Below, piece by piece: positions 3-28,974 of a stretch of DNA of 64,000 nt (the stretch's first letter is position 1; every line of letters begins with the position of its first letter). The notes under the pieces are model-generated. The model was given only the letters and a program-made list of their open reading frames with translations, did no database searches and was not told the DNA's origin. This DNA is from Candidatus Cloacimonadales bacterium. GTDB taxonomy: Bacteria > Cloacimonadota > Cloacimonadia > Cloacimonadales > JAFGVF01. Location: NCBI GenBank assembly GCA_963678315.1, contig OY782781.1:960001-1024000 (forward strand), in the 5' to 3' direction. A program made the position numbers and the translations under genes.

Positions 3-1010
3 GTTTCTGGCGATAGCTATGTTTATAAAGAAGTCTTAAAATCTATTTCACAGAATAAGATTTCAAGCATTGAACTTAATAATTTTGTTCAGGATAAGAA
101 AACAAATACAAGTCCTCAGCTCTATAGGGGAGAGATTCTTTATAATTCTAATCCTGAGAGAGTATTCTATAAAGAACTTTCAGACAGTCTATATTGCTAC
201 TTCCAACTTAATGATTTAAAAAAGGCTTCTAGATCAGAGTGGTCTTATAACTATACAATCACAGTCCGTGATTCTAATGGCGAAAAGCTTTTTACAGAAG
301 ATAGACTTTCTGAGTCTAACAGTGAAATAGCTTCTATTGTGCATGGAATAGGAATCCAAAATCTCGACAATGGATTATATACAATTACTGTTGAAAATAC
401 TGAATATGCAGAAAATAATATCAGCAGAACCGATTTCTCAATATCTGATTTTGCAGGAGAAATGATTTCCATGCTGAATGACCCAGAAGAAGAGTTCTTC
501 TTAATTAAGTACTTCGGCTATGATGAAACTTCAAGAAGATGGGAAAACTTTCCTAGAAGTAGAAAGATTAAAGAGATAAATAAGTTCTGGAATATCTATT
601 CAACTAAAATGAATATGTCAGTAAATTCATTAGACGAAATTCTAAAAGAAAGAATTGAATATGCTAACCTTAAATTCTCTTCAAAAACACCTGGTTGGAA
701 GTCTGACAGAGGTAAAGTCTATATTCTATATGGCGCTCCAGATGATATAGATAAGTATCTTGTTGGTGAAATGGATGCAACAGATCAAAGTGACCTTGAT
801 TCACAAATCAATAGAGCTGCAGTCTTTAACGATAGAGAATATGAAATTTGGCGATATACTTCTAGTAGAATTGCTAGCTATACTTTCTTTGATACACGAC
901 TAGATAATAGCCACAAATTAATCTACATCTATAATGACCCAAATATGGAAACTTCGGCTGATTATAAGTTCTATCTGGGACAAGACTTTGATGAGGATGT
1001 GCTAAAGTAG
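3..1010 (+). CDS. GWxTD domain-containing protein (5' end outside window)
   Basis: Motif RIEYANLKFS..PGWKSDRGKVYILYGAPD and EIWRY. The frame is open from position 3, so the gene starts upstream of the window and not at 339. Confidence 0.85.
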   Translation, partial: VSGDSYVYKEVLKSISQNKISSIELNNFVQDKKTNTSPQLYRGEILYNSNPERVFYKELSDSLYCYFQLNDLKKASRSEWSYNYTITVRDSNGEKLFTEDRLSESNSEIASIVHGIGIQNLDNGLYTITVENTEYAENNISRTDFSISDFAGEMISMLNDPEEEFFLIKYFGYDETSRRWENFPRSRKIKEINKFWNIYSTKMNMSVNSLDEILKERIEYANLKFSSKTPGWKSDRGKVYILYGAPDDIDKYLVGEMDATDQSDLDSQINRAAVFNDREYEIWRYTSSRIASYTFFDTRLDNSHKLIYIYNDPNMETSADYKFYLGQDFDEDVLK

Positions 1011-2296: not shown

Positions 2297-3310
2297 ATGC
2301 GAAAAGTTAAGTTATTGTTTTTGATTTTAATGTTGTTATTGGTTAATGTTATAAGTGCATTACCGTTTGGAACTTTGGGTAATATAGATGTTCCTGATGG
2401 TTTTGTTAGTCCTGCAAATAGAATTCAAGTGAACTTTGCCTCATATTTAAGAGATGGTAAAGTTGATTTTAATGATGAAAATGCAGATTATGAATATAAC
2501 TATGTTATTCAAGCTCGCTATGGTTTATTTGATAGAGCTGATATTGGTTTTGTATATACTGGAGATGAAGTATTTTACGCTAATTTAAAATTCAAGTTAA
2601 TTGAAGAAAATGATGAATATCCTGGTATTTGTATTGGTGTTGATAACTTATTCTCAAAAGTTGATACTGATTATAAAAAACAATTAGAAGAACATCCAGA
2701 AGAATTGGAAGATATCCAAGATGCTGATACTTATGAAAGAAATTCTTTCTATGTTACTGCTTCTAAAGCATGGGCATTTACTGGTGTACCTGTCTTTGAT
2801 GAAATGCAAACATATGTAACATTAGGTATGGGTGTTAACCGTTTTGTAGGCCAAAGAGATTTAGCTAAAGATTTTAACGGTTTATTCGGTTCTGTTGAAT
2901 TCCGTCCAAACGATTCATATAGTTTCTTTACTGAACAATCAGGTCACGCTATAAATATTGGTGCTCGTTATTCTTGGAATAATTTTGATTTCCAATACTC
3001 AATATTAGAAATAGAAGAATTTATTAAAGAGAATGATGATAACCTCAAAATGGCTTTAAATATCAACTTTAACATTAATAACTGGGTTAAAGAAGATACT
3101 GGTAAAAGATTTGATAATCGTACAGGTGCAAGATCTGTTGGTAGAAGAACTTCTGAATTTAAGGATAGTCAATTACGTGGCCAAAGCATCTTAGATAGAA
3201 TTAATGCCTTGAAACAACAAGAACAATCTTTAGATAAAGCAAATGATGTAGATACTATTGTCGATGAAGAGGATATTGATGATTTAATCAATGAAATGAT
3301 TGAAGAATAG
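2297..3310 (+). CDS. Outer-membrane beta-barrel protein, YjbH-like, with coiled-coil/acidic C-terminal tail
   Basis: Signal peptide; N-terminal GTLGNIDVPDG like the YjbH G.TG.I..P.A motif; alternating aromatic strands (FGSVEF, NIGARY). Confidence 0.6.
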   Translation: MRKVKLLFLILMLLLVNVISALPFGTLGNIDVPDGFVSPANRIQVNFASYLRDGKVDFNDENADYEYNYVIQARYGLFDRADIGFVYTGDEVFYANLKFKLIEENDEYPGICIGVDNLFSKVDTDYKKQLEEHPEELEDIQDADTYERNSFYVTASKAWAFTGVPVFDEMQTYVTLGMGVNRFVGQRDLAKDFNGLFGSVEFRPNDSYSFFTEQSGHAINIGARYSWNNFDFQYSILEIEEFIKENDDNLKMALNINFNINNWVKEDTGKRFDNRTGARSVGRRTSEFKDSQLRGQSILDRINALKQQEQSLDKANDVDTIVDEEDIDDLINEMIEE

Positions 3311-3337
3311 ATTGTAATATAAAAATAAGTAGGAAAT

Positions 3338-6300
3338 ATGTATAATAAAAAGAAGATTATTCTTGTTCTTCTTGCAGTAGTCTCTATTATATTTTTATAT
3401 TCTCAAGATAACCAAGCTTCTGATATAAATGTTGATTCTGAACTACAACAGAAGAAAAAAATAGAAAAAGATAGAATAGAAAAAGTTAATCAGCTATTAA
3501 ATTCAAGCCAGATTGCTGAAGTAGATTCTTTATATAAAGAAGATGAAAGAATATACTTTAGTTTAATAAGAAGTGGAGATAAACAATTAGCAAATTTCTA
3601 TAAAGATATGATGAATAAAGCATATCGTAATGTTAGAGCTTTGCAAGATGATCTATATTATCTTGACTGTTTTTCATATATTCTTACTAAAAAATGGGAA
3701 TTGGCTGAAGTAAAAACTGCTGATTTTCTAAAGCAATATCCACAGAGTAATGTAACAACAAATATTTTGAAGTTTAGAAAGAAAGCTCTTTTTGAATTAG
3801 GAAGATATGAAGATTATGTTACCCTAGTTGAAGCATCATCATTAGCAACATCTGCGGGTGCAAAGTTTGAATATGCTCAAGCTTTATATAATCTTGAGCG
3901 TTATGATGCTGCTCAACAATTATTAGAAGCGGTAGTAGCTGCTGACGATGTTAAGTATAAATTACGAGCTTTAGCTACTATGGGTTTAATCTCTGCTGCT
4001 AAAGGTAAGTACCAAGAAGCTATTGGAATTTTCACCGTTATTGAACAAGAATTCCCTATAGATACAAAGTATATGGACTTTGTGATTTTATCACAAGCAC
4101 GTCTACATGCACAGATTGGTGAAAATACTTTTGCGACTGAGTATTATAGAGCATATAACGAGCTTACTCAAGGTCAAGATGCAAAAGTTTTATACGAACT
4201 GGCAGTTCTACAAAGAAAAAATGGCAATTTAGATAAGGCTAAAGCTGCGTTTGAAAAAGTTTTAACTCTAAATACAGGTAAAGCTTATTATACTCCTGCT
4301 ATATACAATTTAGTTTTAATTGATCAAGAGCTTAATAATGGGGCTCAATCCTCTAATATTATTTCTAGTTATCAAACAAGAGTTGATAATTACTTTAATT
4401 TAGTAATTCAAAATAGAAACTTAGTTAGCGAAATCCAATCACTAAGGAATAAAGCTTTAGCTGAAGCTGATACTTTACAACTTAAGAATTTAAAGGATAA
4501 GATTGCTGAAAAAAGTATCGCATTGATGGAGAATCAAGATCAGCTTGTTGCTCAAAAAGGTTATGTCTCAAATAGAGATCTTGTATTAATCAAGAGAATT
4601 GAAGAAAAGTTTATTACTCGCAACAGTATATATGTTGAAAGAAAAGAACTAAATGAGCTTATCAGAGACTTCCCTAAAGATGAATTAATCCTAAAGGCAG
4701 ATTATAATCGCGAAAAAGCTGAGATATTTAATATTGCTGAACTTGCAGAAATATTCTTATCAGATATAGAAGAGCCAACTATACAACAGGAAGATAGTGC
4801 ATTATACTTCTCGGAAGAACTATATAATTATATGGTAACTATTGCATTTTTAGAAGAAGATTTACTTGATAACACTCTCTCTAGTAATGAAAAAGCTCAA
4901 ATTAGTAATTTAGTAAAAACTAATAGTGATAGTCTTGTAACATTAAAACTTCGAGGTAAGGTAGAATTAGCTGATATCCCAAATATGGAAGAGAAGTTAG
5001 CTCAGTTCGAAACAAGAGCGGAAGAACTAATTTTCCAAGAAATGGATAAAGAAGAAAAGCGCCAAATTGTTATTGACGGGTATTATGATTTCAAGGCTAA
5101 CAAAGAAAATACTAGCTTATTGGCAAGTGTAGATAACTATGACGAAAAACGTGTAAATAAGTTTAAAAGAGCTTTTAATAAATACAATAAGCAAAAACTT
5201 AATATTGAAGAATATCTCCAATTTGTTTCATTAGAATCAGAATTCCAAAAAATTACAAAATCCTATAATGATAAATTTGCCCAAATGCAAATTGACACGA
5301 CAATTGTAATAAATCGTGAACAAGAGTATGCTATTAGGGAAAATCTATATAATAGAATAAATAGATTTATTTACCAGCATGAAGATTTTGAGAATAACTA
5401 TAAACTATATTTCAATATGGCAGAATTAAGTGCTTTCTTTGATGTTAATAATTACCAATTAAATTACAACAATTATAAAAAAGTGTTAGATCTTAAACCT
5501 GATTTTGCTCTCAAAGATGTTGTTATTTATAACTTAGCATTTAACAAACAAGCCTTGATTGATAGAGAAATAGGAAGAAAAAAAGAAGAGTTGATGAAAA
5601 GTCCAAATTACTTCACATCTGCTCTACCAAATGAGGTAAAGAAAACAGCTGAAAAATATAGCGAAGTAATCAAAAATTATTCTGAAATAGTTAAGGATAA
5701 AGATTCTACATACCGAGTAGAGGCAGTTTTCAGACTAGCAGACTTGTATTATGATTTAGCTGTTGACTCAGACGATATTCTTAAGTATATAGACAAATCA
5801 ATAACTTTGTTTACTATAGCAATGAAAATTGGTGACCAAAAACAACAATTAGAAGCATTATATCAAAGAGCTTGGCATTATATGGCCAAAAGTGAATATG
5901 ATAATGCTATGCTAGATTTAAGAGTATTGCTAGAAAACAAAGACCTATATTCTGAAGATGAAGAGTACAAATATACTTCAGCTTATGATGTTGCGGCATA
6001 TTCATTGAATCAAATTGGGATGTATAATGATACTTTAAGAACAGTTTCATCATATATGAAAGATAAACTTTTTCCAAATTTCGACAAGAACGATGCTTCA
6101 ATAATTTATAATAAAGTTCTTAACTCAAAGAAAAGTACAGACGAGTTCCTACAGGTTATTGACCTTTATAAACTCTATACAGAAGTTCATCCTTTAGATA
6201 TTGTTAACCCTACTTTCTGTGATTCTATAGTTTATGAATACCAAACTCACACACCTGAGATTGGAGGAATCGATTCCTTAAAAGCTAAAAGTAGATTGGT

Positions 6301-9300
6301 TTATCTTGAATCTGTCGAAAGATATGGTTATAATTCAGAATGGTATGATTTTAACAAAGAAGATCCTAAAATAGTTGATTACACAAAATCTGTTAAAAAA
6401 GGATATGAAGGTTATATTTTCCCTGAACTGATTAAACTTATTCAAGAAAATCCTTCTCAAGAAGATATTAGTCAGTATAATGATATGATAGAAGAATATG
6501 CTAATTATCAAGGTGTTACCATTGAGGAAAGAAATAAGTTCTTACCTCTTGTAAAAGAAAATAGTATGGCCTTAGTTAATACTTATGTTGCTAGTAAGAA
6601 CGATACATTAGCTTACGCATGGGGTCAGAATGAAATATACAAATATTTAGAAGTTAATCCTGAAGACAAGCAAAGAGATGTTCTGGAACAAAATGCTTAT
6701 TCTTACGCTGCTAAATATAGGGCTTATGTAGATACAGTAGCTTTTGATAGCTTGCAATATAGTCCACAAGATGTGGAAAATATTAAACTTAATACCAAAA
6801 GAAATTATATTTTAGCTGCTAATAGATATATTGAATATAACACTAAAAACAATATTACTCAAAAAGATGATAAAATATATAACATTTTGTATTTCAGAGG
6901 TCTTGCTAAAGTTGATATTGGAGATATTGAGGGAGCTAGAAATGATTTTCTTAAATGTGATAGCTTAAATATCTCAAATGAAGATAAAAAGAATATTTAT
7001 ACTCAGTTGGCTTTAATATACAAAGATAGAGATGAAATAGATACATCTAATGATTATTTTGCTAGAGCATCTAGATATGCTTCTCTTGAAGAGAAAGAAG
7101 AATATGAAAAAGCAATCTATTCTAATAGAAAAGAAAAAGTTAAGCTTCTAGAAGAAAAGGGTGATCAAGTTGCTGCAGCGAAAGAGTTAGAAATTATGGC
7201 TAATTCAAGTGTTGCTACAGAAGAAGATAAATCCCTAATCAAGCAGGCTGCTAGATCAAAATATCTTGAGGCTGGTGATTATGAAACAGCCATTACCAGA
7301 TTAGTCGAAGAATTTAACAAACAAAATGAAGTAGATGGTGCTTGGGAATATATGGGACAAGCTATTTATATAGCCGACTCTCTTAAGGTTATGGACAAAA
7401 AAATAGAACTTGAAGATATGTTTATCTCTAAGTTCCCATACGATTTACAAACATTTGTTTTCAAACAAAATAGAATCAATGAAGTAAAAGAGGAAGGATC
7501 TACAAAATATAACCCTGATTTAGTGGCTTCAAGATACATGGAACTATATGATCTTGCTACTAAGGATGGTGATAAATTAGATATAGGGGAAAATAAAGCC
7601 CTTGATTTCTATTATTTCTCAATTTCTTATAAAGTCAAGTCTATGTCTGATGAAGATAAGGCTGAAGAATGGCTTAGATTCATTGATAGATTCCCTAACT
7701 ACACCTACACAACATCAACTGGTGCTCTTGTAAATAGTATTGCAATACAAAGTTTAGTATGCAAATTATACAAAGATAGTGGGAATACTGAGAAATATAT
7801 TGAAAATGCGAAGAAGCTATTTGAAATGGACCCTACATCAATTCTATATCTTCAATATGCTGCTGAGCAAATTCAAAAAGTTGATACTGATATCAGAAAG
7901 CTATATAGAAAAAGAGATTGGCAGCCAATGCTAGCTAAGATTGAAGAGTTTAACACTCTTTCTGACAAGTTCATTAATGAAGGTATCAAAGCAGATGATT
8001 TAACTATCAGTCAATTAGATGATGCTTATAATGGATTTGAAACTGACTACAGGAATGAACAGAAGAAAAAAGCTCTATTAGCTGAAATAGAAAGTAATTA
8101 TGAAGAATTTTTAACCTTTACAGATGTTGATTTTAATGAAAGAGTTAGAGTGTCAAATTTAACTACTTGGAATAGGCATCTTTATAAAGGAGAGAAGCGG
8201 ATTCCAACGTTTATTGAGCTTGTTGATTCTGAAATTGCCAAGATTACTGACGAAGTTTCTAAAATCGCTCAATCAGAACTATTAGATCCAGCTGAAAAGA
8301 AAGAAGCATTTTATAAATATTTCTATAACATATTTAATATTGAAAAATATGCATCTGAATTAATTAAAGCACAAGTCAATAAGTATGTCAACTTACCAGA
8401 AGGTCAGTTTAAGAAATATCAATTGAAGCTGGCTACAGACCCAACTACTACAATTGAAGAAAAAAGACAAAAGATCTTTGATTATCAGCAGAGTATAATT
8501 CCTTATGGTGACCAACTTTCATCTACATATTTTAGCAGATCTGTAGAAGATGCTAGATCAATATATACTAAATTTATTGATGGTTTTAGCTCAAAGTATC
8601 CAAAATCGGATGATATTGTTGATTACTTAGCTTCATTGAATGCTTATGAAGTTCAACCAAAGGAAATTGAAAGTTTGCTTCCAGATAGTTCATGGAGAAA
8701 AGACTATTCTGCTATAACTGAATCTACTTATAATGATTCTCTTAGAACATTTGCTGTTTATGGCATTGCTTCAATGGATACTTTAGTTGTTGAAAATGAT
8801 ATAAATTGTCCTATAGCTCCACTATTTGTGAGATATAGAATAATTACAGATGATGTTGATTTGATGGGGCAAAATATTGCAGATTTCCAAATATTTATTA
8901 ATGATAATCTTATCCAGTTTAATGAACCAGAATATGATGGTTTTATTGAAGATACCTTAGCTACTGTCCAATACTTAGACAGGTATTTAATTAATCATGC
9001 TAATATCAATCCTCAAAGCTATAGACCTGGCATCAATAAGATGAAAATAAAAGTACTAAATAGTAAAATGAGTAGTTTTAATGTTGGACTCCAGATGGAA
9101 GTAGTATATAACGAAGAAGAATTATTTATATATAATAACTCTCAATTAGTATCAATAGTTTCTGATGAAAGTTGGGTAGTATCAGATTCTGTATCTGCTT
9201 TAAACCCTGGATCAAATCTTTTTGAGAATGCTCAAGTAAGTAACTTTGAAGAGGATTATTACCAAATAGCATCCTTTAGTTCTTCAGTAGCTTTACCTAT

Positions 9301-9757
9301 TTGGAGTGCTAAGAAGATTGAAGAAGCTGCTTTAGATACACTATATGTTGTAAATGATTCTCTTAATGTCATGGCTGATTCACTTGTAGTTAATGTTGTT
9401 TCGGATTCTTTAATTGCACAAACTGATAGTCTGCAAGCAGATGAGACTGAGGACTTAACAGAAGAAGAAAAAACTTATGTAAAGATTTTCAAGAAAGAAT
9501 TTGATTTAACTGGTGAAGTTATTGAAGCAAATCTTTACTTCTTAGCTAAAAACATAGCTGACATTTATTTGAACGGTGAGCAGATTGGTTTTGAAGAATA
9601 CTATTATTGGGATGAAAACGAAGCTCCGTCTGTCTACATAGATCCAGCTCAACTTCTCGAAGGCAAAAATGAATTAATCTTTATTGTATATAGTCCTACT
9701 AAAGATAATGGGTTAGTTGTAGACTTCAAAATCAAAACAATAACTAATAGGAGATAA
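3338..9757 (+). CDS. Giant exported TPR protein (2139 aa) with C-terminal galactose-binding-like jelly-roll domain(s)
   Basis: Signal peptide; many TPR patterns (AQALYNLERYDAA, LYELAVLQRKNGNLDKAKAAFEKVL, ALYQRAWHY); C-terminal FKKEF...ADIYLNGEQIG...LLEGKNELIFIV. Confidence 0.8.
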   Translation: MYNKKKIILVLLAVVSIIFLYSQDNQASDINVDSELQQKKKIEKDRIEKVNQLLNSSQIAEVDSLYKEDERIYFSLIRSGDKQLANFYKDMMNKAYRNVRALQDDLYYLDCFSYILTKKWELAEVKTADFLKQYPQSNVTTNILKFRKKALFELGRYEDYVTLVEASSLATSAGAKFEYAQALYNLERYDAAQQLLEAVVAADDVKYKLRALATMGLISAAKGKYQEAIGIFTVIEQEFPIDTKYMDFVILSQARLHAQIGENTFATEYYRAYNELTQGQDAKVLYELAVLQRKNGNLDKAKAAFEKVLTLNTGKAYYTPAIYNLVLIDQELNNGAQSSNIISSYQTRVDNYFNLVIQNRNLVSEIQSLRNKALAEADTLQLKNLKDKIAEKSIALMENQDQLVAQKGYVSNRDLVLIKRIEEKFITRNSIYVERKELNELIRDFPKDELILKADYNREKAEIFNIAELAEIFLSDIEEPTIQQEDSALYFSEELYNYMVTIAFLEEDLLDNTLSSNEKAQISNLVKTNSDSLVTLKLRGKVELADIPNMEEKLAQFETRAEELIFQEMDKEEKRQIVIDGYYDFKANKENTSLLASVDNYDEKRVNKFKRAFNKYNKQKLNIEEYLQFVSLESEFQKITKSYNDKFAQMQIDTTIVINREQEYAIRENLYNRINRFIYQHEDFENNYKLYFNMAELSAFFDVNNYQLNYNNYKKVLDLKPDFALKDVVIYNLAFNKQALIDREIGRKKEELMKSPNYFTSALPNEVKKTAEKYSEVIKNYSEIVKDKDSTYRVEAVFRLADLYYDLAVDSDDILKYIDKSITLFTIAMKIGDQKQQLEALYQRAWHYMAKSEYDNAMLDLRVLLENKDLYSEDEEYKYTSAYDVAAYSLNQIGMYNDTLRTVSSYMKDKLFPNFDKNDASIIYNKVLNSKKSTDEFLQVIDLYKLYTEVHPLDIVNPTFCDSIVYEYQTHTPEIGGIDSLKAKSRLVYLESVERYGYNSEWYDFNKEDPKIVDYTKSVKKGYEGYIFPELIKLIQENPSQEDISQYNDMIEEYANYQGVTIEERNKFLPLVKENSMALVNTYVASKNDTLAYAWGQNEIYKYLEVNPEDKQRDVLEQNAYSYAAKYRAYVDTVAFDSLQYSPQDVENIKLNTKRNYILAANRYIEYNTKNNITQKDDKIYNILYFRGLAKVDIGDIEGARNDFLKCDSLNISNEDKKNIYTQLALIYKDRDEIDTSNDYFARASRYASLEEKEEYEKAIYSNRKEKVKLLEEKGDQVAAAKELEIMANSSVATEEDKSLIKQAARSKYLEAGDYETAITRLVEEFNKQNEVDGAWEYMGQAIYIADSLKVMDKKIELEDMFISKFPYDLQTFVFKQNRINEVKEEGSTKYNPDLVASRYMELYDLATKDGDKLDIGENKALDFYYFSISYKVKSMSDEDKAEEWLRFIDRFPNYTYTTSTGALVNSIAIQSLVCKLYKDSGNTEKYIENAKKLFEMDPTSILYLQYAAEQIQKVDTDIRKLYRKRDWQPMLAKIEEFNTLSDKFINEGIKADDLTISQLDDAYNGFETDYRNEQKKKALLAEIESNYEEFLTFTDVDFNERVRVSNLTTWNRHLYKGEKRIPTFIELVDSEIAKITDEVSKIAQSELLDPAEKKEAFYKYFYNIFNIEKYASELIKAQVNKYVNLPEGQFKKYQLKLATDPTTTIEEKRQKIFDYQQSIIPYGDQLSSTYFSRSVEDARSIYTKFIDGFSSKYPKSDDIVDYLASLNAYEVQPKEIESLLPDSSWRKDYSAITESTYNDSLRTFAVYGIASMDTLVVENDINCPIAPLFVRYRIITDDVDLMGQNIADFQIFINDNLIQFNEPEYDGFIEDTLATVQYLDRYLINHANINPQSYRPGINKMKIKVLNSKMSSFNVGLQMEVVYNEEELFIYNNSQLVSIVSDESWVVSDSVSALNPGSNLFENAQVSNFEEDYYQIASFSSSVALPIWSAKKIEEAALDTLYVVNDSLNVMADSLVVNVVSDSLIAQTDSLQADETEDLTEEEKTYVKIFKKEFDLTGEVIEANLYFLAKNIADIYLNGEQIGFEEYYYWDENEAPSVYIDPAQLLEGKNELIFIVYSPTKDNGLVVDFKIKTITNRR

Positions 9758-9758
9758 T

Positions 9759-10022
9759 ATGAAAAAGTCAATTTTAATCTTACTTTTATTAACTATCTTA
9801 GCTATTTCATTTCTTAATGCACAGACAACAGACAATGATAATGAAGGAAATACTAATGATGGAAGATATATTGTACAGACATCTGATGATGATATAATTA
9901 GATTTGGATTATTTTTCCCTGACAACGATATTGTTAGAGATAGAACACTTACCAAAGATGAATACATTTTCAAAACATACTTTTTAGATAAATTATTGAA
10001 ATCAAATAGAATTTTATATTAA
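9759..10022 (+). CDS. Small exported protein (positional analogue of GltF)
   Basis: GGAG RBS, signal peptide, starts 1 nt after the TPR gene stop. Confidence 0.65.
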   Translation: MKKSILILLLLTILAISFLNAQTTDNDNEGNTNDGRYIVQTSDDDIIRFGLFFPDNDIVRDRTLTKDEYIFKTYFLDKLLKSNRILY

Positions 10023-10036
10023 TATTAGGAGAAAAC

Positions 10037-10870
10037 ATGAAAAAACAAGCATTTTTAATTTTGTTGTTGGTTTTATTCAGTTTTAGTTTTTTGTTAGCTC
10101 AAACTGATGATGCAAAAGTAGGTAATGATACCGAAGAGGTTGTTGTTGGAACAGAACAAGGCGCTACTGATACTGCTAGTGAAAAAGTTGAAGGACAAGA
10201 TAAAGATGAAACTAGTCCTACAAACCTATTTAGAATTTATGATAATTCTGGTGTTTACGCTCACTTTATTTTAGCTGTATTCTTATTGGCTGTATTCTAT
10301 GGTCTGTATAGATTCTATATTCTATATATCAAAGAAAAATTAGATGTGGAAGCTTTCCATTTGAAACTTAAAGGACTTGTTAAGTCAGGTTCTATCAAAG
10401 AAGCTATTAATGCTGCTACACTTGTTAAAAGAACTACTTTAGGTCAAGTTTACCGCATTGGTTTGTTTGGATACAGAGATGCAAAAGAATCAGGTAAAAC
10501 TGGTGAAAGCTTGAAAGAAGAAGTTCAAAGAGCATTTAATGAAGCTGCTTATCAAACAATTCCTGTTATTGATAGAGGTTTAGGTTGGTTTGACTTGTTA
10601 GCTCAGGTTTCTACTTATCTTGGTCTACTTGGTACAATTATGGGTCTTATTGAAGCTTTCGGTGGCTTAGGTGGCGGAAACTCAGATAGTAATGCTTTGA
10701 CTGACGGTATTCAAAAATCAATGGGAACAACAGCGCTAGGTCTTATTGGTGCTATTATTATTCAATTTATCAAAGGTGCTCTAAGTGCACGTGCAGAAAA
10801 AATAATTAATGAAGTTGATGAAAAAAGCGTTAAAATAATGAACGTTATCAATAACCAAATCCAGGACTAG
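10037..10870 (+). CDS. MotA/TolQ/ExbB proton-channel subunit (AglR-like)
   Basis: STYLGLLGTIMGLIEAF and GIQKSMGTTALGL motifs; signal peptide followed by an acidic linker. Confidence 0.93.
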   Translation: MKKQAFLILLLVLFSFSFLLAQTDDAKVGNDTEEVVVGTEQGATDTASEKVEGQDKDETSPTNLFRIYDNSGVYAHFILAVFLLAVFYGLYRFYILYIKEKLDVEAFHLKLKGLVKSGSIKEAINAATLVKRTTLGQVYRIGLFGYRDAKESGKTGESLKEEVQRAFNEAAYQTIPVIDRGLGWFDLLAQVSTYLGLLGTIMGLIEAFGGLGGGNSDSNALTDGIQKSMGTTALGLIGAIIIQFIKGALSARAEKIINEVDEKSVKIMNVINNQIQD

Positions 10871-10874
10871 TACT

Positions 10875-11447
10875 ATGAGACGAACTCCTGCTGTTGGAAC
10901 AAAAAAGAAAACATATAGTCCTTCAGAAGGTAGAGCTAGACAAGGTGATCATGGTCATAAAGAAGTTGATTTAGTGCCAATAATGAACCTGTTTGTAACA
11001 ATAATTCCATTATTGCTACAGATGGTTGTTTTGGTAACCATTGCTTATGTTACACTAGATTTAACAACCCCTCAAGCTGGAGGTGGTACTGGCAGTGAAA
11101 GCAATGAAGAAGAGACTCCAAAAGAGATTACTGATCTGGAGCTAGTAATAAACGTTGGTGAAGATAACAAAGAGTTTTACAACTTTGTAAAAAATGGTGA
11201 AATTGATACTGACGTTGCTAATATACCTGTAGAAAATATGGATAAGTTAGCTGATGCATTAAGAAATTATAGAAGTATAATGTTCAATGATCTTTTTAAT
11301 GATAATGATGTTGATAAACATAAAGATAAACAGCTAACAATACAAGTTTTCCCGAAAGATTATGTGGAATTTGGAACATTCGTTAAAACAATGGACTTAT
11401 GTAAGAAATTGAATTTTGGCGATATTATTCTCAAAGAGATTAAATAA
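10875..11447 (+). CDS. ExbD/TolR family subunit 1
   Basis: EVDLVPIMNLFVTIIPLLL transmembrane segment; C-terminal VEFGTFVKTMD. Confidence 0.85.
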   Translation: MRRTPAVGTKKKTYSPSEGRARQGDHGHKEVDLVPIMNLFVTIIPLLLQMVVLVTIAYVTLDLTTPQAGGGTGSESNEEETPKEITDLELVINVGEDNKEFYNFVKNGEIDTDVANIPVENMDKLADALRNYRSIMFNDLFNDNDVDKHKDKQLTIQVFPKDYVEFGTFVKTMDLCKKLNFGDIILKEIK

Positions 11448-11459
11448 GGAGTGTGATAA

Positions 11460-12059
11460 ATGAGTGTAACTAGAAGACATAAAGGCTCTGCACAAATGAG
11501 TATCACCTCTTTGATAGATATTCTTACTATTCTATTGTTATTTGTTATGGTTAACGTTTCTTCTGACCCTGATTTTACACCTGATGATGTGGAGCTAGAA
11601 GAATCCATAATTAACGAAGAAATAGATGCAGAAAGCGAAGTGATTACTTTAAATGTAAGTTACACAGGCCTTGACAAAGGAGTTATAACTTACACAAATA
11701 AGGCAACTGGTGAGCCAATTGAGATTATGAGATTGGAAGAAATTAACAATACAAATGATGAAGAGTTTAAAAACTTGTTAAGCTCTAGTGTTATTGCTTT
11801 GGACGAGCAAATATATGCTGTTTTAGGTGATAATAATGAAAAACCAATTGTTGTGAAAATCAAAGCTCATAAGAAAGTTCCTTTCAAATATATAAATGTT
11901 GTAAAAACACTACTATTAGGTGTATGGAATGGTAGTGAAAACAAAGTACCAAACCTTTCTAAGGCTAATAACTTTGTTTTATATTTTGCTACTTCATTTA
12001 TTAAAGCAGAAACAGATCAGTACAGATCCGTTCTTTCTGATTATGGATTAGGAGGTTAG
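11460..12059 (+). CDS. ExbD/TolR family subunit 2
   Basis: MSITSLIDILTILLLFVM with the conserved Asp; C-terminal IKAHKKVPFKYI. Confidence 0.85.
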   Translation: MSVTRRHKGSAQMSITSLIDILTILLLFVMVNVSSDPDFTPDDVELEESIINEEIDAESEVITLNVSYTGLDKGVITYTNKATGEPIEIMRLEEINNTNDEEFKNLLSSSVIALDEQIYAVLGDNNEKPIVVKIKAHKKVPFKYINVVKTLLLGVWNGSENKVPNLSKANNFVLYFATSFIKAETDQYRSVLSDYGLGG

Positions 12060-12060
12060 A

Positions 12061-13566
12061 ATGCGATCAGATTTATTCTTAATTTATAATTATCGGGGTA
12101 AACAATTTGTTATCGCAAAAGACGATCCTGAAATTCACAGACTGTTTCGCTTAGGAAAGAAGCTTGTAATAGGCTCAGATGCCAAGAACTTATGGCAAAT
12201 TTATGATAATAAGTTCCCAAAGAAGTATGTTTTTGTAGAGAAAGGTCAAGATTCCTATTTTGTAAATCTACAAAAAAATATGTCTATTGTTGTCAGTGAT
12301 GGCAATAAGGAACTAACATTAGAAGAATTAAAATCTAAAGGCTTATTAAAGAATAACAAGCTATATCTTAAAGAAGGATATAGTGGTTCAGTTCATATAA
12401 ATGAAAACACTGAGATTAAATTTAGATTTGTTAGAGGAAGTGTTGCATTAACTGAAGACCAGAAGAGAATGGTAGCTAACTTTACCAAGAGACCTCCATT
12501 AGCCTCTGACCAAAAGATTACAAGAAGTCTTATCTTTATTGTGCTTATACTTGTTATTGCTTTTGCTTCATATATGAACTATGTTTATGAACCAGTGGTA
12601 AAAAAATCTGTTTTTGAACAAACAAGAGATAATCTAAAGCGTGAGATGACAGTTTCTGCTGAAGTTAAAGTTAATACTCCTACTAATGTTGCGACAGTTG
12701 AAAAAACAGGTGGTGAGGGAGAAAAGATTGACGAAACTCCTCAAGAAGTTACACCAACTGATGATCAAACTACTAATGCCAATACTATGAGTAATGCAGA
12801 TGCTTTAGCACTAATTAGTGCTACCCAAGTAGATTTAGTGAATCAAACAATGAGCACACAGAATACTCAAGTTGCGGGAATGCCTTCAGGAGGTGGAGGT
12901 GGTGGAGCAATTAGTGGAAGCCTTATTTCGAGTACAATGAGTGGACTTAAAGGTAACAATAATAGAAAAACCACAATTAACATTGGAAATGTTAGTACTT
13001 CAACAAGTATCGACGATAGAATTAATGCTCTAGCTGCAGGACGTGGTTTGGACACCGGTTTAGCTGCAGTGGGCGCAGGTGGAGAATCTGTTACAACTGT
13101 TGCTGAAGGTCGTGCAACTAATCTAATAGCATCTACAGACATAAATGCTATAAAAGATTATAATGCAAATGTTGGTAAGAATCCAGGTGGTGGTATTGAA
13201 GATACTGGAACTGCAAATGTTGCTGTGTCAGGACTTCCTAAGACAGTTGATCCTAAAGCTATTATTGAAGAACCTACTGTAACAGGTGAAACTGCACAGC
13301 AAAGTAGAGTTAAACAATGGTTCACAGGAACAATGGGACCTCAAATATCTGGTTTATACAATACTTATAAGTTAACTAAGCCGATACGTGGTTACTTAGA
13401 TTTTACATTTAAAATTGTGAAAGGAAAAGTTGTGAAAGTAACTATTACTGGTTCTATTAAAGATAAAAAATTCATTAATGAGTTAAGGAAAATTCTAAAT
13501 AAAAAAACTATCACAGGTTTAGTCGATTATGACAGTAAGCCAATTCGAAAGAACTTTGGTAATTAA
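12061..13566 (+). CDS. Single-pass TonB-like transducer (GltG/AgmX-PglI-like architecture)
   Basis: Beta-rich FHA-like N-domain (LVIGSDAKN), one TM helix, long Gly/Thr/Ser linker, C-terminal ISGLYN.Y....PIRGYLDFTFKIVKGKVVKV resembling a TonB_C/PglI domain. Confidence 0.65.
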   Translation: MRSDLFLIYNYRGKQFVIAKDDPEIHRLFRLGKKLVIGSDAKNLWQIYDNKFPKKYVFVEKGQDSYFVNLQKNMSIVVSDGNKELTLEELKSKGLLKNNKLYLKEGYSGSVHINENTEIKFRFVRGSVALTEDQKRMVANFTKRPPLASDQKITRSLIFIVLILVIAFASYMNYVYEPVVKKSVFEQTRDNLKREMTVSAEVKVNTPTNVATVEKTGGEGEKIDETPQEVTPTDDQTTNANTMSNADALALISATQVDLVNQTMSTQNTQVAGMPSGGGGGGAISGSLISSTMSGLKGNNNRKTTINIGNVSTSTSIDDRINALAAGRGLDTGLAAVGAGGESVTTVAEGRATNLIASTDINAIKDYNANVGKNPGGGIEDTGTANVAVSGLPKTVDPKAIIEEPTVTGETAQQSRVKQWFTGTMGPQISGLYNTYKLTKPIRGYLDFTFKIVKGKVVKVTITGSIKDKKFINELRKILNKKTITGLVDYDSKPIRKNFGN

Positions 13567-13600
13567 ACTTATTAATCAATAATAACAATATAACTTAACT

Positions 13601-13634
13601 AAGGGGATTTACTCGCAAGAGTAATCCCCTTTCC
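13601..13634 (+). terminator. Intrinsic terminator closing the envelope operon
   Basis: AAGGGGATT(T)ACTC-GCAA-GAGTAATCCCCTT followed by T-rich sequence. Confidence 0.8.
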
Positions 13635-13695
13635 CTTTTGATATTTCAAATCTTTTTTCTTGCCAATTATAATTAACTTTTGAATATACAATTCT

Positions 13696-16062
13696 ATGAA
13701 GCATTATATAATTAGTTTAAACATGGAGCTCGATAGAGAGTTCATCTATACTTCTAAAAAGGAATTAACATTAGGTTTACGGTGCATTGTTCCTTTTAGG
13801 AATTCTATACGTACAGGAATTGTTCAAAGTGAAGCAGTATCTGTTGATAATTCAATACAGTATAAAGAGATTTTAGAAGTTGTAGAAGACAAGCCTTTAC
13901 TCACTTTTGATTTGTGGAAATTAAGTTTCTGGATAGCTAATTATTATGCAACAAGTATTGGTAAGGTTTTATTTTCTATGCTACCTAAAGGTCTGTCCTT
14001 AGAAATATTTACTGATATTAGATTGAAAGGAGACCATAAAGAGCTAGGAAATAAGCTAGATTTATATGAGATGCTTAAAGATGAAGAATGGCATGAACTA
14101 AATTATATATTCAATCAGTTAGGAAGTAGGATTAGTTACAAATTAATTGAGGAGCTAGAGAAAGCAGGGATAATTGAAGTAAAAAGGCACTATGACAAGA
14201 AAGTAAAGGTAAAGAAAGCAAATTTTATTTTTGTAGAAGGCAATGATAAAGATGTGAAGTTATCTCCTAAGCAAAAAGAAGCCTTTGAACTTATAAGAAG
14301 CAGTGAAAAGATTCTCGCATTAACAGATATTGCTAAAGCTTTTTCATATTCAATTATTAGAGCCTTGCAGGAAAAGGGCTTAATCAAGATAATTCCCCTT
14401 GAAGTTAGTGATAATATTGATTTACTTCCTACAAGGAAAGAACGCAAAATCGTTACGTTAACAGATGAACAAGCTAGGGTAATCTCCAATATCGAAAAGG
14501 ATTTAGAATCATACAAGGTTCATTTACTTTACGGGATAACTGGTTCAGGTAAAACAGAAGTCTATATTAGGATAATGGAAAAAGTCTTGGCTAATGGTAA
14601 GAATGCCCTTTTGTTAGTCCCTGAAATATCCCTTACTCCTCAAACCGTTGACCGTTTCTACAGTGCTTTCGGAGAGAATATAGCCATTCTACATAGTAAT
14701 CTAACGGATAGAGAGCGTTTCCATGAATGGAAAAGAATCAAAGCTAATGAATGTAGAATAATCATCGGGGCTAGATCTGCTATATTTGCTCCCTTGCAAG
14801 ATATTGGACTTATCATAGTTGATGAAGAGCATGAGGGTTCTTATAAGCAGGAGAATAGTCCACGCTACAATGCTAGAGACTTAGCTGTTATGAGGGGAAA
14901 AATAAATGTATGCCCTGTTATTCTAGGTTCAGCTACTCCTTCCCTGGAATCTTGGTTAAACGCTTTAAATGGACGTTATATCCTCAATAAAATGTTAAAA
15001 CGACCTACAGGAATAACTCTTCCCACAGTTAAAATCATTGACTTGAAGAAAGAAAAGAATGACCTTTTACTATCGGAAGACCTGTTGAAAGCTATAAAGG
15101 ATAAACTAGAAAAGAAAGAACAGGTTATCCTCTTTCAAAATCGAAGAGGATATTCTAATTTTATGCAATGTAAAAGTTGTGGTGAGCTGATTAAATGTCC
15201 GCATTGTGATGTTAGCCTGCATTATCATAGTTATACAGAAGAAGTCATCTGTCATTATTGTGGTTATAAGAAACCTACTCCAAGAAAGTGTCCTTCCTGT
15301 GGAGGATATTCTTTCATGTATGGAGTAGGGGGAACTCAAAAGCTTGAAGAACAGGTTAGATCATGTTTTCCAACTGCTAAAGTTATGAGAATGGACTCTG
15401 ATACCACAAGCAAGAAGAGTTCTTATAATGACATGTTTGAAGCAATGTCGTCTAATTCTGTAGACATACTTCTAGGAACTCAGATGATATCTAAAGGCTT
15501 AGATTTCCCTAATGTGACCCTAGTTGGAGTTATCTTGGCTGATATATCTTTAGGCCTAGCTGATTTTAGAGCATCGGAAAGAACCTTCCAATTGTTAACG
15601 CAAGTGGCTGGACGTTCAGGAAGAGGTGATAAAGTTGGACAAGTTATAATACAGACTTATATGCCTGAGCACTATGCTATAGTTAATTCATCTAATCAAG
15701 ATTTCCTTAAAATGGCTGAAATGGAATTACACATGCGGGAAAGTTTATTTTATCCACCTCATTTTAGATTAGCTCGAATCTTATTCTCTCATCATACAGA
15801 GAAAACTTTATTAGAATCTTTTAATAAAAATAGAGAGTTCTTTCAGCAACTAAGCTCTATTTATTCATTCCAAGAATTAAAAGTATTGGGACCAGCTCCT
15901 GCCCCAATTCCTAGAATTAGTAATAAATTCCGCTATCACTTAATCTTCAAAGGTAAGGATGTAAGTGTTATCTCTTCTGTGATTAAATTCTTCAAATCAA
16001 ATTATAAGGCTAAATCCTCAATTAAAGTTGCTATCGATATTGACCCTATATCTCTCTTATAG
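13696..16062 (+). CDS. priA: Primosomal protein N' (replication restart helicase)
   Basis: GITGSGKTEVY, VPEISLTPQ, DEEH, two Cys4 zinc sites, KGLDFPNVTLV, QVAGRSGR. Confidence 0.97.
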   Translation: MKHYIISLNMELDREFIYTSKKELTLGLRCIVPFRNSIRTGIVQSEAVSVDNSIQYKEILEVVEDKPLLTFDLWKLSFWIANYYATSIGKVLFSMLPKGLSLEIFTDIRLKGDHKELGNKLDLYEMLKDEEWHELNYIFNQLGSRISYKLIEELEKAGIIEVKRHYDKKVKVKKANFIFVEGNDKDVKLSPKQKEAFELIRSSEKILALTDIAKAFSYSIIRALQEKGLIKIIPLEVSDNIDLLPTRKERKIVTLTDEQARVISNIEKDLESYKVHLLYGITGSGKTEVYIRIMEKVLANGKNALLLVPEISLTPQTVDRFYSAFGENIAILHSNLTDRERFHEWKRIKANECRIIIGARSAIFAPLQDIGLIIVDEEHEGSYKQENSPRYNARDLAVMRGKINVCPVILGSATPSLESWLNALNGRYILNKMLKRPTGITLPTVKIIDLKKEKNDLLLSEDLLKAIKDKLEKKEQVILFQNRRGYSNFMQCKSCGELIKCPHCDVSLHYHSYTEEVICHYCGYKKPTPRKCPSCGGYSFMYGVGGTQKLEEQVRSCFPTAKVMRMDSDTTSKKSSYNDMFEAMSSNSVDILLGTQMISKGLDFPNVTLVGVILADISLGLADFRASERTFQLLTQVAGRSGRGDKVGQVIIQTYMPEHYAIVNSSNQDFLKMAEMELHMRESLFYPPHFRLARILFSHHTEKTLLESFNKNREFFQQLSSIYSFQELKVLGPAPAPIPRISNKFRYHLIFKGKDVSVISSVIKFFKSNYKAKSSIKVAIDIDPISLL

Positions 16063-24674: not shown

Positions 24675-24789
24675 CAAATTACTCCATAGACTTGCTTTTT
24701 ATTGACAAAAAGCATATTTTTCTTGACTTAATGAGATATTGACAACTAATTAGTAAATAATTGATCATACATAAATATTGAGGTTTTTG

Positions 24790-27700: not shown

Positions 27701-28026
27701 TAGATTATGATGGTAATATCAAGTTCACTCTAGCACAGAGTAAGCAGATACTAGACTATTTCCAGAAGCTATGTTCAGGAAGTAAGGAAATTTACCAGGA
27801 CTTACTTAAAAGCTTCTCGAGAGATACGAAAAAGGGAAAGGATATGTCTTGTTACACTGAGATGCTAGAGTATGCGGTAGATAATATATTAGGAATTAAA
27901 CGTGAAAAAGGATTGGCAAGCTTGTTTAAGACAGGAGGAATAAATCTAACTAAAAAAGATAATTCATGGATAAAAGACTTTGAAGTAATATCGTTTCTCG
28001 TCATCGAGAAAGAAATTACTAATTGA
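24790..28026 (+). CDS. SNF2-family helicase with degenerate PLD-like N-terminal domain
   Basis: ADSVGLGKT, IDESHNFRN, LSATP, ATDCISEGQNLQ, WNPVRIIQRFGRIDRIG. No intact HxK motif seen in the N-domain. Start placed at the ATG after GAGG. Confidence 0.9.
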   Translation: MNVKVIDNKQNGLLGHELNNIINDDATISITTSYLTIYALEELHKKLAKSSKLRLLLDKNPFVDNDKLISPTIYFGDNSELSLKNKLNIAYLSKKCSELLENKADIKAINPGIAGSPITHIIDKQGSHTLLPSPTFYNSQSLGYLPSKQLSIFNLTSFNKDEENPYSTYFETLWSDKNNTVDIKNDILKQLDRGYKDYTPQELYYFTLYHIFKDSLDGVDEDKVVKSKTGFKDTIVWNKLYNFQKDGVLGAIDKIEKHNGCIIADSVGLGKTFEALAVIKYYELRNHRVLVLCPKKLRDNWTVYTLNDTRNTLLKDRFNYDVLNHTDLTRESGFSGEMNLETINWSNYDLVVIDESHNFRNGFARSSAIKITRYSRLMDQIIKSGVRTKVLMLSATPVNSRMNDLKNQVAFITEGDELAFEDYGVNNISSVMKQAQGQFNKWLKEKKDNKDVASSKSLLESIDARYFKLLDLLTIARSRKHIEKYYDVTRIGKFPERLKPINIKSDIDLDNSFPELKEINRKIRKLNLSAYSPIKYVRPEKQDEYKRRYDLKLAKGSVFRQIDREQSLIQLMRVNMFKRMESSINSFTLTLKKFLKQVNAMLEKIDNHAELYQSDLNIEEIDFDDTSVESYLIGNKVKVLIQDMDIIKWKQDLREDKEKLSHLLNEAQKITSARDAKLGDLKDIIRNKIKNPINASNRKIIVFTAFADTASYLYDNLAEWALSELDINSAVVSGSKALKTNLQGVKSRYNDILTNFSPISKERVLKNSETDKEIDLLIATDCISEGQNLQDCDYLINYDIHWNPVRIIQRFGRIDRIGSKNNQIQLVNFWANMELDEYINLEARVSGRMKLLDISATGEENVIESNPEMNDLAYRRKQLEQLQSKVIDLEDIQGGISITDLTFNDFKVELLDYLRHNQDELERTPTSIHAITKLNSSEIPPGAIFCLKQITGSTDKNKAYNALEPYYLVYIDYDGNIKFTLAQSKQILDYFQKLCSGSKEIYQDLLKSFSRDTKKGKDMSCYTEMLEYAVDNILGIKREKGLASLFKTGGINLTKKDNSWIKDFEVISFLVIEKEITN

Positions 28027-28078
28027 GAATTGATAATAACCTGTTTGCCGACCGGCAGGGAATGGATAATGGATAATT
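28021..28078 (+). repeat. Heptamer array A (AATKGAK orientation) with embedded GC-rich mini-hairpin
   Basis: aattgag aattgat aat[aacctgtttgccgaccggcaggg]aatggat aatggat aatt. Confidence 0.8.
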
Positions 28079-28108
28079 TCTTGCTTAAAAGATATTAAGG
28101 AAGTGTTG

Positions 28109-28939: not shown

Positions 28940-28974
28940 TTTCGTGTTTTTTGTGGTTAAATAATAGGAGTTAT

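Follow-up and report, generated by a model that had tools for sequence, protein, structure and literature searches.

A seven-gene operon in a Cloacimonadota genome with probable homology to the Agl-Glt core of myxobacterial envelope machines

The gliding (Agl-Glt) and spore-coat (Agl-Nfs) machines of myxobacteria share a core of aglR, aglQ, aglS, gltC, gltD, gltE and gltG (Group B), which Luciano et al. (2011, PMC3169522) report as being of unknown function and as clustered also in non-gliding Gamma- and Betaproteobacteria, in Geobacter and in Fibrobacter succinogenes. Fibrobacter is the sole non-proteobacterium for which that report gives the core, and one extra gene is mentioned there in the non-myxobacterial cores. 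Here we describe an operon of seven open reading frames (ORFs), all on the forward strand at positions 2297-13566 of a 64,000-nucleotide stretch of DNA from a Candidatus Cloacimonadales bacterium (assembly GCA_963678315.1, contig OY782781.1, positions 960,001 to 1,024,000, our G000:C1:960001-1024000; hereafter the window). The host genome is a single contig of 2.99 Mb and 97.9% complete. Judged by sequence, the operon is very probably homologous to the Glt-type core.

The ancestral job of this core has been open since 2011, and it is hard to approach in myxobacteria, with their paralogous clusters and many added parts. Our literature search, which left most subscription journals outside, found nothing on the function of the core outside myxobacteria after the 2011 report, and the system is not described in what the same search found on Cloacimonadota together with type IX secretion or gliding motility. 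For the Myxococcus xanthus machine, published AlphaFold models set the C-terminal domain of GltG, with its linker, on GltD and its membrane-proximal forkhead-associated (FHA) domain on AglR, and GltF comes to lie between GltC and GltG (PMC11761067). From about position 190, GltG is described there as a second FHA domain (the one on AglR), a membrane helix, a linker and a TonB-like C-domain; GltC is presented as the connector to outer-membrane (OM) barrels, and the small GltF as a bridge formed by its C-terminal helix. A cluster of like gene order has been described in F. succinogenes S85, FSU_2396-2403, annotated as OmpA-family, tetratricopeptide repeat (TPR), TPR, MotA/TolQ/ExbB, ExbD, ExbD and TonB-family proteins (Raut et al. 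2019, PMC6851124). Its products are reported there to be more abundant on cellulose, and two of them to occur in a cellulolytic vesicle complex. Compared by its published annotation only, this cluster has the same gene order as the Cloacimonadota operon and belongs to a neighbouring phylum of the FCB group. It differs in its first gene, which is OmpA-family there, whereas the operon in the window opens with a barrel that carries a coiled C-terminal helix and no OmpA domain.

The evidence that carries the homology begins with the last gene, which encodes a 501-amino-acid (aa) transducer (12061-13566, +). Pfam gave no family for this protein or for the 337- and 87-aa products of the first and third genes, and a single-sequence homologue search with the 501-aa protein returned itself alone. 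A profile search of 1.84 billion representative sequences, in contrast to that single-sequence search, gave 408 matches at E <= 0.001 and 75 at E <= 1e-30. Of the more distant matches, 31 were examined by Pfam and 25 by NCBIfam. TonB_C was present in 22 of the 31 (one an unrelated FMN_bind protein) and FHA or Yop-YscD_cpl in 2. All 25 fit both the gliding_GltG model NF033760 (E 1e-14 to 1e-59, model positions ~200-650) and NF033768, the model of the AgmX/PglI C-domain, and all 25 score below the equivalog cut-off. When the transducer family and these GltG-like proteins were aligned as profiles by hhalign, the match reached 99.9% (E 4.6e-36), and its 407 columns extended from the FHA domain through to the C-terminus. 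On these profile comparisons, the nearest relatives of the 501-aa protein beyond its own family are GltG-like proteins.

The predicted architecture is that of the membrane-proximal part of GltG. An AlphaFold2 (AF2) model made with 15 orthologues (mean pLDDT 61; confident at residues 1-125 and 409-501) has a cytoplasmic FHA-fold beta sandwich at residues 1-125 (pLDDT about 88) and, at residues 409-501, a helix followed by strand-strand-helix-strand, the arrangement of a TonB-type C-domain. Between them lie a transmembrane (TM) helix at about residues 149-175 and a disordered linker (199-407) that is rich in Thr, Gly, Ser and Asn and not proline-rich. The top Foldseek rows were nearly all FHA entries, the best being the ArnA FHA domain 5a8i (E 4.5e-4, the sole match at or below 0.001), and VIA aligned residues 3-124 with the Ki67 FHA domain (Z 9.0, rmsd 2.8, 91 residues aligned). 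The canonical FHA motifs are Gly-Arg and Ser-x-x-His; they were not seen in the transducer alignment. For residues 411-501, VIA gave the Escherichia coli TonB C-terminal domain 1xx3 (Z 6.4, rmsd 2.7, 81/89 residues aligned) and four further TonB-family C-domains at Z 5.8-6.4, all at values near 6, where chance arrangements occur. No TolA chain stood among the 50 VIA rows listed for the 501-aa model, which leaves room for a TolA-like fold. Against PDB sequences, the transducer profile found TonB chains in 9 of 30 rows, including the top five (best E 0.026). Among the 15 orthologues, Pfam TonB_C matches 4, NF033768 matches 11 (best 3.6e-8), the generic tonB_Cterm model matches 2, and the GltJ model weakly matches 1.

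As a comparison set, a genome scan with four GltG-like proteins of the Myxococcota group yielded 80 loci, titled as Myxococcota or as unspecific proteobacterial or "bacterium" metagenome-assembled genomes (MAGs). Where the contigs allow it to be read, the order in these loci runs from three TPR proteins (600-810, 1140-1260 and 490-595 aa, in that sequence) through a small ORF and a TolQ-like gene to two TolR-like genes and, last, the GltG-like gene. NCBIfam assigns the label gliding_GltC-like to the first TPR protein (E 1e-14 to 1e-30) and gliding_GltE-like to the third (E 1e-19 to 1e-30), and the second, with its YbgF-like repeats (E 1e-36 to 1e-58), holds the GltD position. Since the matches lie below the equivalog cut-offs, the set is referred to as Glt-core-like and not as proven gliding genes; the GltD-like set used below was defined by position in 5 Myxococcota loci and not by a curated model. 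Hidden Markov models (HMMs) of the seven families, run against the ORFs of the 80 loci, gave counts of 72 for the transducer, 48 for the N-terminal and 25 for the C-terminal TPR type, 16 for the motor, 15 for the first and 16 for the second TolR-like subunit, and 0 for the barrel. One of the loci, in a Myxococcaceae MAG (L032:14-1092), has an MglB-like gene (E 1.5e-25) and a small GTPase gene directly upstream of a GltC/GltD/GltE/GltG-like cluster that is without adjacent motor genes. At the Cloacimonadota operon we found no polarity genes of the MglA/MglB type.

A second line of evidence comes from the motor subunit, a 277-aa TolQ/ExbB/AglR-like putative proton-channel protein (10037-10870, +; PF01618 MotA_ExbB, E 2.9e-21). 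The genome has four genes of the MotA/ExbB family including this one; the other three lie in a receptor-ExbB-ExbD-ExbD-TonB locus, in a TolQ/TolR-like pair and in a MotA/MotB-like pair within a polysaccharide locus. An HMM of 15 motor orthologues was scored against these three paralogues and against all 29 PF01618 genes of five Myxococcota genomes that had yielded loci. Its scores were 109-156 bits for five Myxococcota genes, among them the two GltG-adjacent genes at L073 and L089, as against 63-69 bits on four true TolQ (those over the tolQ equivalog cut-off) and at most 78 on all others; the three paralogues scored 78, 39 and 19 bits. In a quick maximum-likelihood tree of 61 rows, the 15 orthologues (support 100) group with 16 GltG-adjacent and three further Myxococcota paralogues, and the TolQ/ExbB clade (support 97) lies apart from the motor and GltG-adjacent clade. 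The motor is thus closer in sequence to the TolQ-like genes of Glt clusters than to canonical TolQ or ExbB.

The two TolR/ExbD-like subunits that follow, of 190 aa (10875-11447, +; PF02472 ExbD, E 2.9e-7) and 199 aa (11460-12059, +; PF02472, E 3.9e-7), differ at the proton-binding Asp site. The first has Asn at this site (Asn38 in the window), as do all 15 orthologues and 14 of the 16 matches in Myxococcota, and the second retains Asp (Asp20) in 14/14 orthologues and 15/16 Myxococcota matches. The Asp is also retained in all three ExbD/TolR proteins of the genome's two canonical loci. The Asn/Asp pattern of the pair is an observation of the present analysis. Moreover, each TolR-like HMM matches essentially only its positional counterpart in the Myxococcota loci, the two having in common 1 of 16 matches, an ORF of L047 that is weak for the first HMM (E 1.3e-4); by their sequences, the two genes represent separate lineages. 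AglQ and AglS are described as a heterodimeric plug (PMC11761067), and the conserved Asn/Asp pair suggests an asymmetric stator with one proton-binding site.

A third line of evidence is the conservation of the arrangement. Within the order, 33 of 41 genomes, counting that of the window, have a relative of the 501-aa protein. For synteny, 14 relatives' loci were picked to span families, making 15 loci with the window. The barrel, TPR, motor, first TolR-like and transducer genes stand in one order in 14 of 14 relatives' loci, and for the second TolR-like gene BLASTP gave a match in 13 of the 14, the exception being L017, where a 570-nt space at its place was not itself examined. A metagenome locus (L153) has the same operon order as far as its sequence goes, which ends before the barrel gene. 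The TPR protein is split into two genes (about 675 aa and 1290-1510 aa) in 10 of the 14 relatives and is encoded by a single gene in 4; counting the window, the fused form occurs in 5 of 15 loci and in two families, and the split form is found in another genus of the window's own family. Repeated fusion, in two families, fits a fixed direct contact of the two halves, which we describe below as GltC-like and GltD-like.

Across the phylum, the transducer profile (15 sequences) matches 156 of 201 sampled genomes, and 119 of the 151 that are of high quality. By family, the matches fall to 0/8 in f7, 0/6 in f14 and 1/15 in f15. Family f14 consists of six single-contig genomes of ~1.6 Mb, 97-99% complete, in which both the transducer and the type IX translocon protein SprA score 0/6, which suggests a lineage with a much reduced envelope apparatus. 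Three genomes of one genus of the same family as the window (G003, G005 and G009, genus g2) encode another protein, 732-760 aa long, that aligns with the transducer in its C-domain only (residues about 405-492, E about 1e-8); it may be a second tail protein of the AgmX/PglI type, and none was seen in the window's genome.

The largest product of the operon is an exported TPR protein of 2139 aa (3338-9757, +), with Pfam TPR repeats near residues 170-312, including a TPR_2 match at 282-312. We divide it into a GltC-like module (aa 1 to ~660; 3338-5317), a GltD-like central helical/TPR scaffold module (aa ~661-1790; 5318-8704) and a C-terminal beta-rich extension (8705-9754). In hhalign comparisons with the three Myxococcota TPR types, the N-terminal type matched GltC-like proteins at 97.8% (E 6.7e-13, 249 columns), GltD-like at 95.6% and GltE-like at 73.7%, and the HMM of its split form matches Myxococcota proteins that NCBIfam labels gliding_GltC-like. 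The C-terminal type matched GltD-like proteins at 99.6% (E 2.1e-24, 909 columns), as against 19.5% for GltE-like and 8.5% for GltC-like. From these scores the 2139-aa protein reads as a fusion of a GltC-like and a GltD-like protein, and GltE is without a counterpart. The scaffold had earlier been taken for a GltD/E fusion; the GltD half of that proposal holds, and its partner is GltC-like instead.

Neither Pfam nor the Atlas gave a firm family for the C-terminal 490 aa of the scaffold. Its last ~110 aa form a conserved domain with an invariant NG and G.N in the alignment of 15 orthologues. A profile of this end, run against PDB sequences, found a carbohydrate esterase best (9h4u, E 0.0018), followed by a beta-galactosidase, an exo-glucosaminidase and a rhamnosidase at E 0.3-0.8, and Atlas leads at 0.86-0.89 point to Bac_rhamnosid_N and BetaGal_ABD2 clusters. 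The scaffold end may thus bear a weak resemblance to galactose-binding-like jelly rolls, and the former label of a "lectin-like" tip finds weak support in these beta-sandwich matches to sugar enzymes and in the Atlas leads.

Between scaffold and motor lies a gene for a small exported protein of 87 aa, a signal peptide plus ~60 aa (9759-10022, +). A small ORF of 72-117 aa, with a signal peptide and an end of the form ...SN[KR]xLY, occupies this position in 14 of 15 loci, which is also the place of the small ORF in the Myxococcota clusters. The equivalence with GltF that had been suggested for it extends to position, size and signal peptide only.

The first gene encodes a 337-aa protein (2297-3310, +) with a signal peptide, a predicted 12-strand OM barrel, a linker and a charged C-terminal helix. 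In the AF2 model (pLDDT 68.9, pTM 0.61) the 12 strands span aa 43-260, and the helix, at aa 298-336, is conserved in sequence and highly charged. VIA gave the COG4313 channel 4rl8 (Z 13.5), FapF (13.4), KdgM (12.5) and autotransporter barrels (11.6-11.8), the best of its matches being 12-strand barrels, and Foldseek found FapF best (E 1.5e-6). The gene comes first in 14 of 14 relatives' loci. Its family has 52 members, all unnamed or "hypothetical", of which 4 come from sources named Candidatus Cloacimonadota, Cloacimonetes or Cloacimonadales, for example a Candidatus Cloacimonadales bacterium at 55% identity; these source names agree with the phylum that had been proposed from the sequence. 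The same protein had been called a YjbH-like barrel, and the barrel is borne out. At E <= 1, Pfam YjbH (PF06082) matches 6 of the 15 orthologues, the best at 3.8e-4 and none, as far as shown, reaching the gathering score; the copy in the window does not match, and the YjbH part of the name is weak. A complex prediction that paired the GltC-like module (aa 23-680) with the barrel (aa 22-337) gave a median of 0.31 against a mark of 0.32, with controls at 0.00, which weighs neither way on binding.

Set beside the Agl-Glt core, the operon has in common with it a TolQ-like gene, two TolR-like genes and an FHA-TM-TonB-like transducer in one operon, as well as TPR proteins of similar size (GltC 673 aa in M. 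xanthus and about 675 aa here; GltD 1191 aa and ~1300-1500 aa; PMC3169522). The host is likewise not known to glide, and the function of the core is unknown. The operon differs in having no GltE-like gene at the locus, in the fusion of GltC and GltD and in the extra C-terminal beta domain. It has one FHA domain, aligned to the membrane-proximal part of GltG (~200-650), where GltG has two, and it is led by a 12-strand barrel with a C-terminal helix. Moreover, the Cloacimonadota lie outside the phyla listed by Luciano et al. (Delta-, Gamma- and Betaproteobacteria and Fibrobacter; PMC3169522). Together with the sugar-binding-like end of the scaffold, the phylum, barrel helix, GltC-GltD fusion and single FHA domain are the distinguishing marks of this form. 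In working principle it is likely to resemble the Agl-Glt and Agl-Nfs machines of M. xanthus, as described in PMC11761067 and PMC3858216, with an AglR5-AglQ-AglS-type stator, a GltG tether and a GltC connector; unlike them it has no polarity genes at the operon, scores below the cut-offs of the Glt equivalogs and is known here from genes alone. None of the window's proteins matched the models of GltG (NF033760), GltC (NF033756), GltE (NF033758) or GltJ (NF033761) at E <= 0.01. With no match at equivalog level, the operon is not an orthologue of the gliding genes themselves, and as it also has no GltE-like gene at the locus we regard it as a variant of the Agl-Glt core and not as a gliding machine.

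TolQRA-Pal and ExbBD-TonB are comparable in part. They resemble the operon in the MotA_ExbB and ExbD families, in a single-pass transducer with a TonB-type C-domain and, by homology, in a 5:2-type stator driven by the proton motive force. They lack its FHA domain, its Asn/Asp pair and its giant scaffold; conversely, the operon has no receptor, TolB or Pal, and its motor scores lower against true TolQ than against the TolQ-like genes of Glt-type clusters.

Our results favor homology with the Agl-Glt core combined with a general mechanism of force transduction across the envelope, a combined claim that we consider probable, with less assurance than the homology itself. This is the divergent Agl-Glt-core-like machine proposed in an earlier note on this DNA, which was made from its letters and open reading frames, and the proposal is strengthened by the full-length GltG homology, the motor scores and the conserved order. 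The note had listed two outcomes that would speak against it: a 501-aa protein lacking FHA-like and TonB_C-like folds, or motor subunits grouping with canonical ExbBD/TolQR together with a gene order that is not conserved. Instead, both folds were matched on either side of the TM helix and linker that the note had described, the motor gave higher bit scores to GltG-adjacent genes and joined them in the tree, and the order is kept in the relatives' loci.

However, the results should be read with some caution, since several points weigh against this interpretation. The clade joining the motor to the Myxococcota has an SH-aLRT of 82, in a tree with long branches and one misplaced MotA row. The NCBIfam Glt matches, including those of the Myxococcota MAGs, are far below the equivalog cut-offs, and the comparison set consists of MAG sequences only, with no M. 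xanthus sequence. The window's own 501-aa protein matches no NCBIfam or Pfam model of GltG, AgmX/PglI or TonB_C; its link to GltG comes through orthologues and profiles, the window's copy being from a divergent genus, and the Z scores to TonB domains are insufficient alone. The naming of the N-terminal module as GltC-like gains only modest specificity over generic TPR similarity. No GltE-like gene lies at the locus and neither TPR module is specifically GltE-like, the rest of the genome not having been searched, and the barrel HMM found no counterpart in any of the 80 Myxococcota loci. Finally, function is read from sequence and models, in an organism known only from its sequence.

If the homology extends to mechanism, the stator would be a TolQ/AglR-like channel of five subunits around the Asn/Asp TolR-like pair. 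On the pattern of TolQRA, ExbBD-TonB and the Agl-Glt models, the flow of protons through this stator would drive the membrane helix of the transducer, whose FHA domain would anchor it under the stator at the cytoplasmic face. The flexible linker of ~200 residues would cross the peptidoglycan and periplasm, and the C-domain would grip the GltD-like scaffold. The scaffold would in turn be tied to the OM barrel through its GltC-like end, possibly together with the small protein. The output would be mechanical work at the outer membrane, exerted on an OM or glycan-binding scaffold.

As to what this work achieves, our tentative preference, which we would not put as high as the mechanism, is that the machine acts on a surface polymer or adhesin, which it would move or hold, as Agl-Nfs does with the glycan of the spore coat and Agl-Glt with an adhesin. 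The alternative that survives best, which we nevertheless judge unlikely, is that the operon is the phylum's equivalent of Tol-Pal, in which the motor would be of TolQR type, the tether like TolA and the TPR protein like YbgF/CpoB, together serving OM attachment and constriction at division, with the barrel as anchor. The best NCBIfam match of the motor is indeed tolQ (E 5e-15), the TPR protein matches tol_pal_ybgF (E 5.6e-5), and the Myxococcota GltD-like proteins are themselves built from YbgF-like repeats. On the other hand, Glt-type clusters are marked by the FHA domain, the Asn/Asp pair of TolR-like subunits, a C-domain of the AgmX/PglI type and this gene order, and such clusters coexist with true TolQ in Myxococcota genomes. 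The near-universal presence of the system in the small genomes of the main order, and its position next to the housekeeping gene priA, would suit a Tol-like role. So would the state of the other TolQR-like locus, at L028, which has no adjacent TolB or Pal; yet that locus is also a separate TolQ/TolR-like pair, accompanied by a 265-aa unknown protein, and in this respect it counts against the alternative.

The distribution of TolB does not decide the matter. In the genome no TolB or Pal equivalog turned up, and a search for TolB gave 0 of 201 phylum genomes. However, the TolB model exceeded its cut-off only in the E. coli and Caulobacter controls and not in Bacteroides, and since it passes only in proteobacterial controls, its silence here says little. 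Families f7 (0/8) and f15 (1/15), which are without the system, are also without TolB, and there is consequently no complementary pattern; replacement of the system by TolB in families that are without it is not borne out by the 0/201 count. On both grounds, the Tol-like reading is neither helped nor hurt.

A specialised TonB-ExbBD uptake system is a clearly poorer candidate, one that we consider improbable. The C-domain would then open the 12-strand barrel or a distant receptor and import oligosaccharides or other large solutes. Import of cellodextrin has been proposed for the similarly ordered FSU_2400-2403, which are more abundant on cellulose (PMC6851124), and the fold of the TonB C-terminal domain, the ExbB and ExbD Pfam families and an OM barrel within the operon all agree with such a role. 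Against it, the 12-strand barrel lacks a plug domain, neither Plug nor TonB_dep_Rec was detected as a family, the linker is not rich in proline, one TolR-like subunit is without the Asp, and 11 of 15 orthologues have a C-domain of the AgmX/PglI subtype, as opposed to 2 of 15 for generic tonB_Cterm. To our knowledge, no TonB transport system makes use of a periplasmic scaffold of 2139 aa, which counts against uptake as well. The genome also has its complete receptor-ExbB-ExbD-ExbD-TonB locus elsewhere, and with a canonical TonB system and its own receptor available, the operon is not needed for ordinary TonB uptake. In line with what the earlier note had stated, Pfam and NCBIfam found no TonB-dependent receptor, TolB or Pal among the seven operon proteins.

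The genome also encodes parts of a type IX translocon: SprA (2118 aa, 517 bits; G000:C1:135254-139513, -), a PorV-like gene and many proteins with type IX C-terminal sorting domains, C25 peptidases among them. GldL, GldM and GldN were not found in it, GldK was found at domain level only, and GldM is over its cut-off in 0 of 201 phylum genomes, which would suit the operon as the energiser of this translocon; these searches were, however, without a positive control, the genes being absent from all 14 control genomes, so that divergent GldL and GldM may have been missed and the translocon's motor may be very divergent or different. SprA is present in 191 of 201 phylum genomes, including 8/8 of f7 and 15/15 of f15, and 22 of the 23 genomes of these two families therefore have SprA without the operon, which speaks against an obligatory link to type IX secretion and against co-variation of the system with SprA. 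With this distribution, a distance of about 830 kb from sprA and a motor gene of the MotA_ExbB family and not GldL, the idea that the operon energises the type IX translocon, and with it the secretion of sorting-domain proteins, is the least probable of all.

The cargo genes that had been noted near the operon are present, as two large C25-family peptidases and a lamin-tail-domain protein with type IX sorting domains (53115-56999, -; 57022-58677, -; 59005-62583, +), but they lie 40 kb away with unrelated genes between.

The probability left over from the surface-polymer, Tol-Pal-like, uptake and type IX readings falls to something else. Within the preferred reading of work on a surface polymer or adhesin, a more specific and doubtful proposal is that the operon encodes a pared-down surface conveyor of Agl-Glt type, with a single stator, tether, fused scaffold with a sugar-binding end, small bridge protein and OM barrel. 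Such a conveyor would move or clamp a surface glycan or adhesin, and these uncultured anaerobes could use it to glide or to attach actively to particles of polysaccharide; one ancestral module would then lie behind it, the Fibrobacter complex for cellulose adhesion and the two myxobacterial machines for gliding and spore-coat formation. If this were true, the seven-gene form would be the simplest natural version of the machine and would reveal the job of the core complex. The Cloacimonadota form is useful in other respects too. Here the core is a single compact operon, present in most genomes of one phylum, its natural gene fusions hint at which proteins touch, it includes an OM partner that is absent from myxobacteria, and its seven proteins make a minimal set for structural modelling or expression. 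It also joins the myxobacterial machines, the Fibrobacter cellulose-adhesion cluster and the Cloacimonadota in one testable family. These genomes moreover show no recognisable TolB and Pal or GldL and GldM.

The layout of the locus is that of a tight single operon, as had been claimed for it. The intergenic gaps are 27, 1, 14, 4, 12 and 1 nt, and AAGGAGAGGG stands immediately 5' of the ATG of the first gene. Upstream of that gene, a consensus scan found a promoter-like pair, TTGACT-16-TAAAAT (2212-2239, +), with 10/12 matches, to be taken as a lead only, such sites being no commoner in the region than in shuffles. Downstream of the last gene, RNA folding of 13560-13700 gave a terminator-like structure (13601-13646, +) with 13 pairs, a GCAA loop and a U-rich tail: the GC-rich hairpin itself occupies 13601-13631 and is followed by UCCCUUUUGAUAUUU (z -3.14, equally stable in 1 of 200 shuffles). 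A consensus terminator scan reported nothing 3' of the last gene and thus missed this hairpin. The flanking genes are unrelated, yraN (1793-2194, opposite strand) upstream and priA (13696-16062) downstream, and the first ORF of the window (3-1010, +) encodes a GWxTD-domain protein.

Some further observations concern other parts of the genome and window. In the polysaccharide locus that holds the MotA/MotB-like pair (G000:C1:1593000-1611000, our L029, about 7228-10045, -), a 461-aa FliG_C protein is encoded together with a MotA-like gene, whose best NCBIfam matches are to flagellar MotP and PomA, below cut-off, and a MotB/OmpA-like gene. These adjoin genes for an AAA protein, a Wzz/tyrosine-kinase-like protein, LytR and a Wza-type polysaccharide export protein. 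An exopolysaccharide locus is an unusual setting for a stator of flagellar type that has a FliG-like partner. Within the window, at 23139-24462 (+), a group II intron reverse transcriptase/maturase is encoded as two overlapping ORFs, the first with RVT_1 positions 1-143 and the second with RVT_1 139-205 plus GIIM, which suggests a frameshift or a sequencing error. A defence-type run at 24778-39842 (+) includes an SNF2-like helicase (1082 aa), a KilA-N protein, a DUF4391 protein, a SIR2-like protein followed by a HerA-like ATPase (29767-32696), an N6/N4 DNA methylase, a 23S rRNA-intervening-sequence protein, a YhcG-type PDDEXK nuclease and a type III restriction-like helicase-endonuclease (1013 aa).

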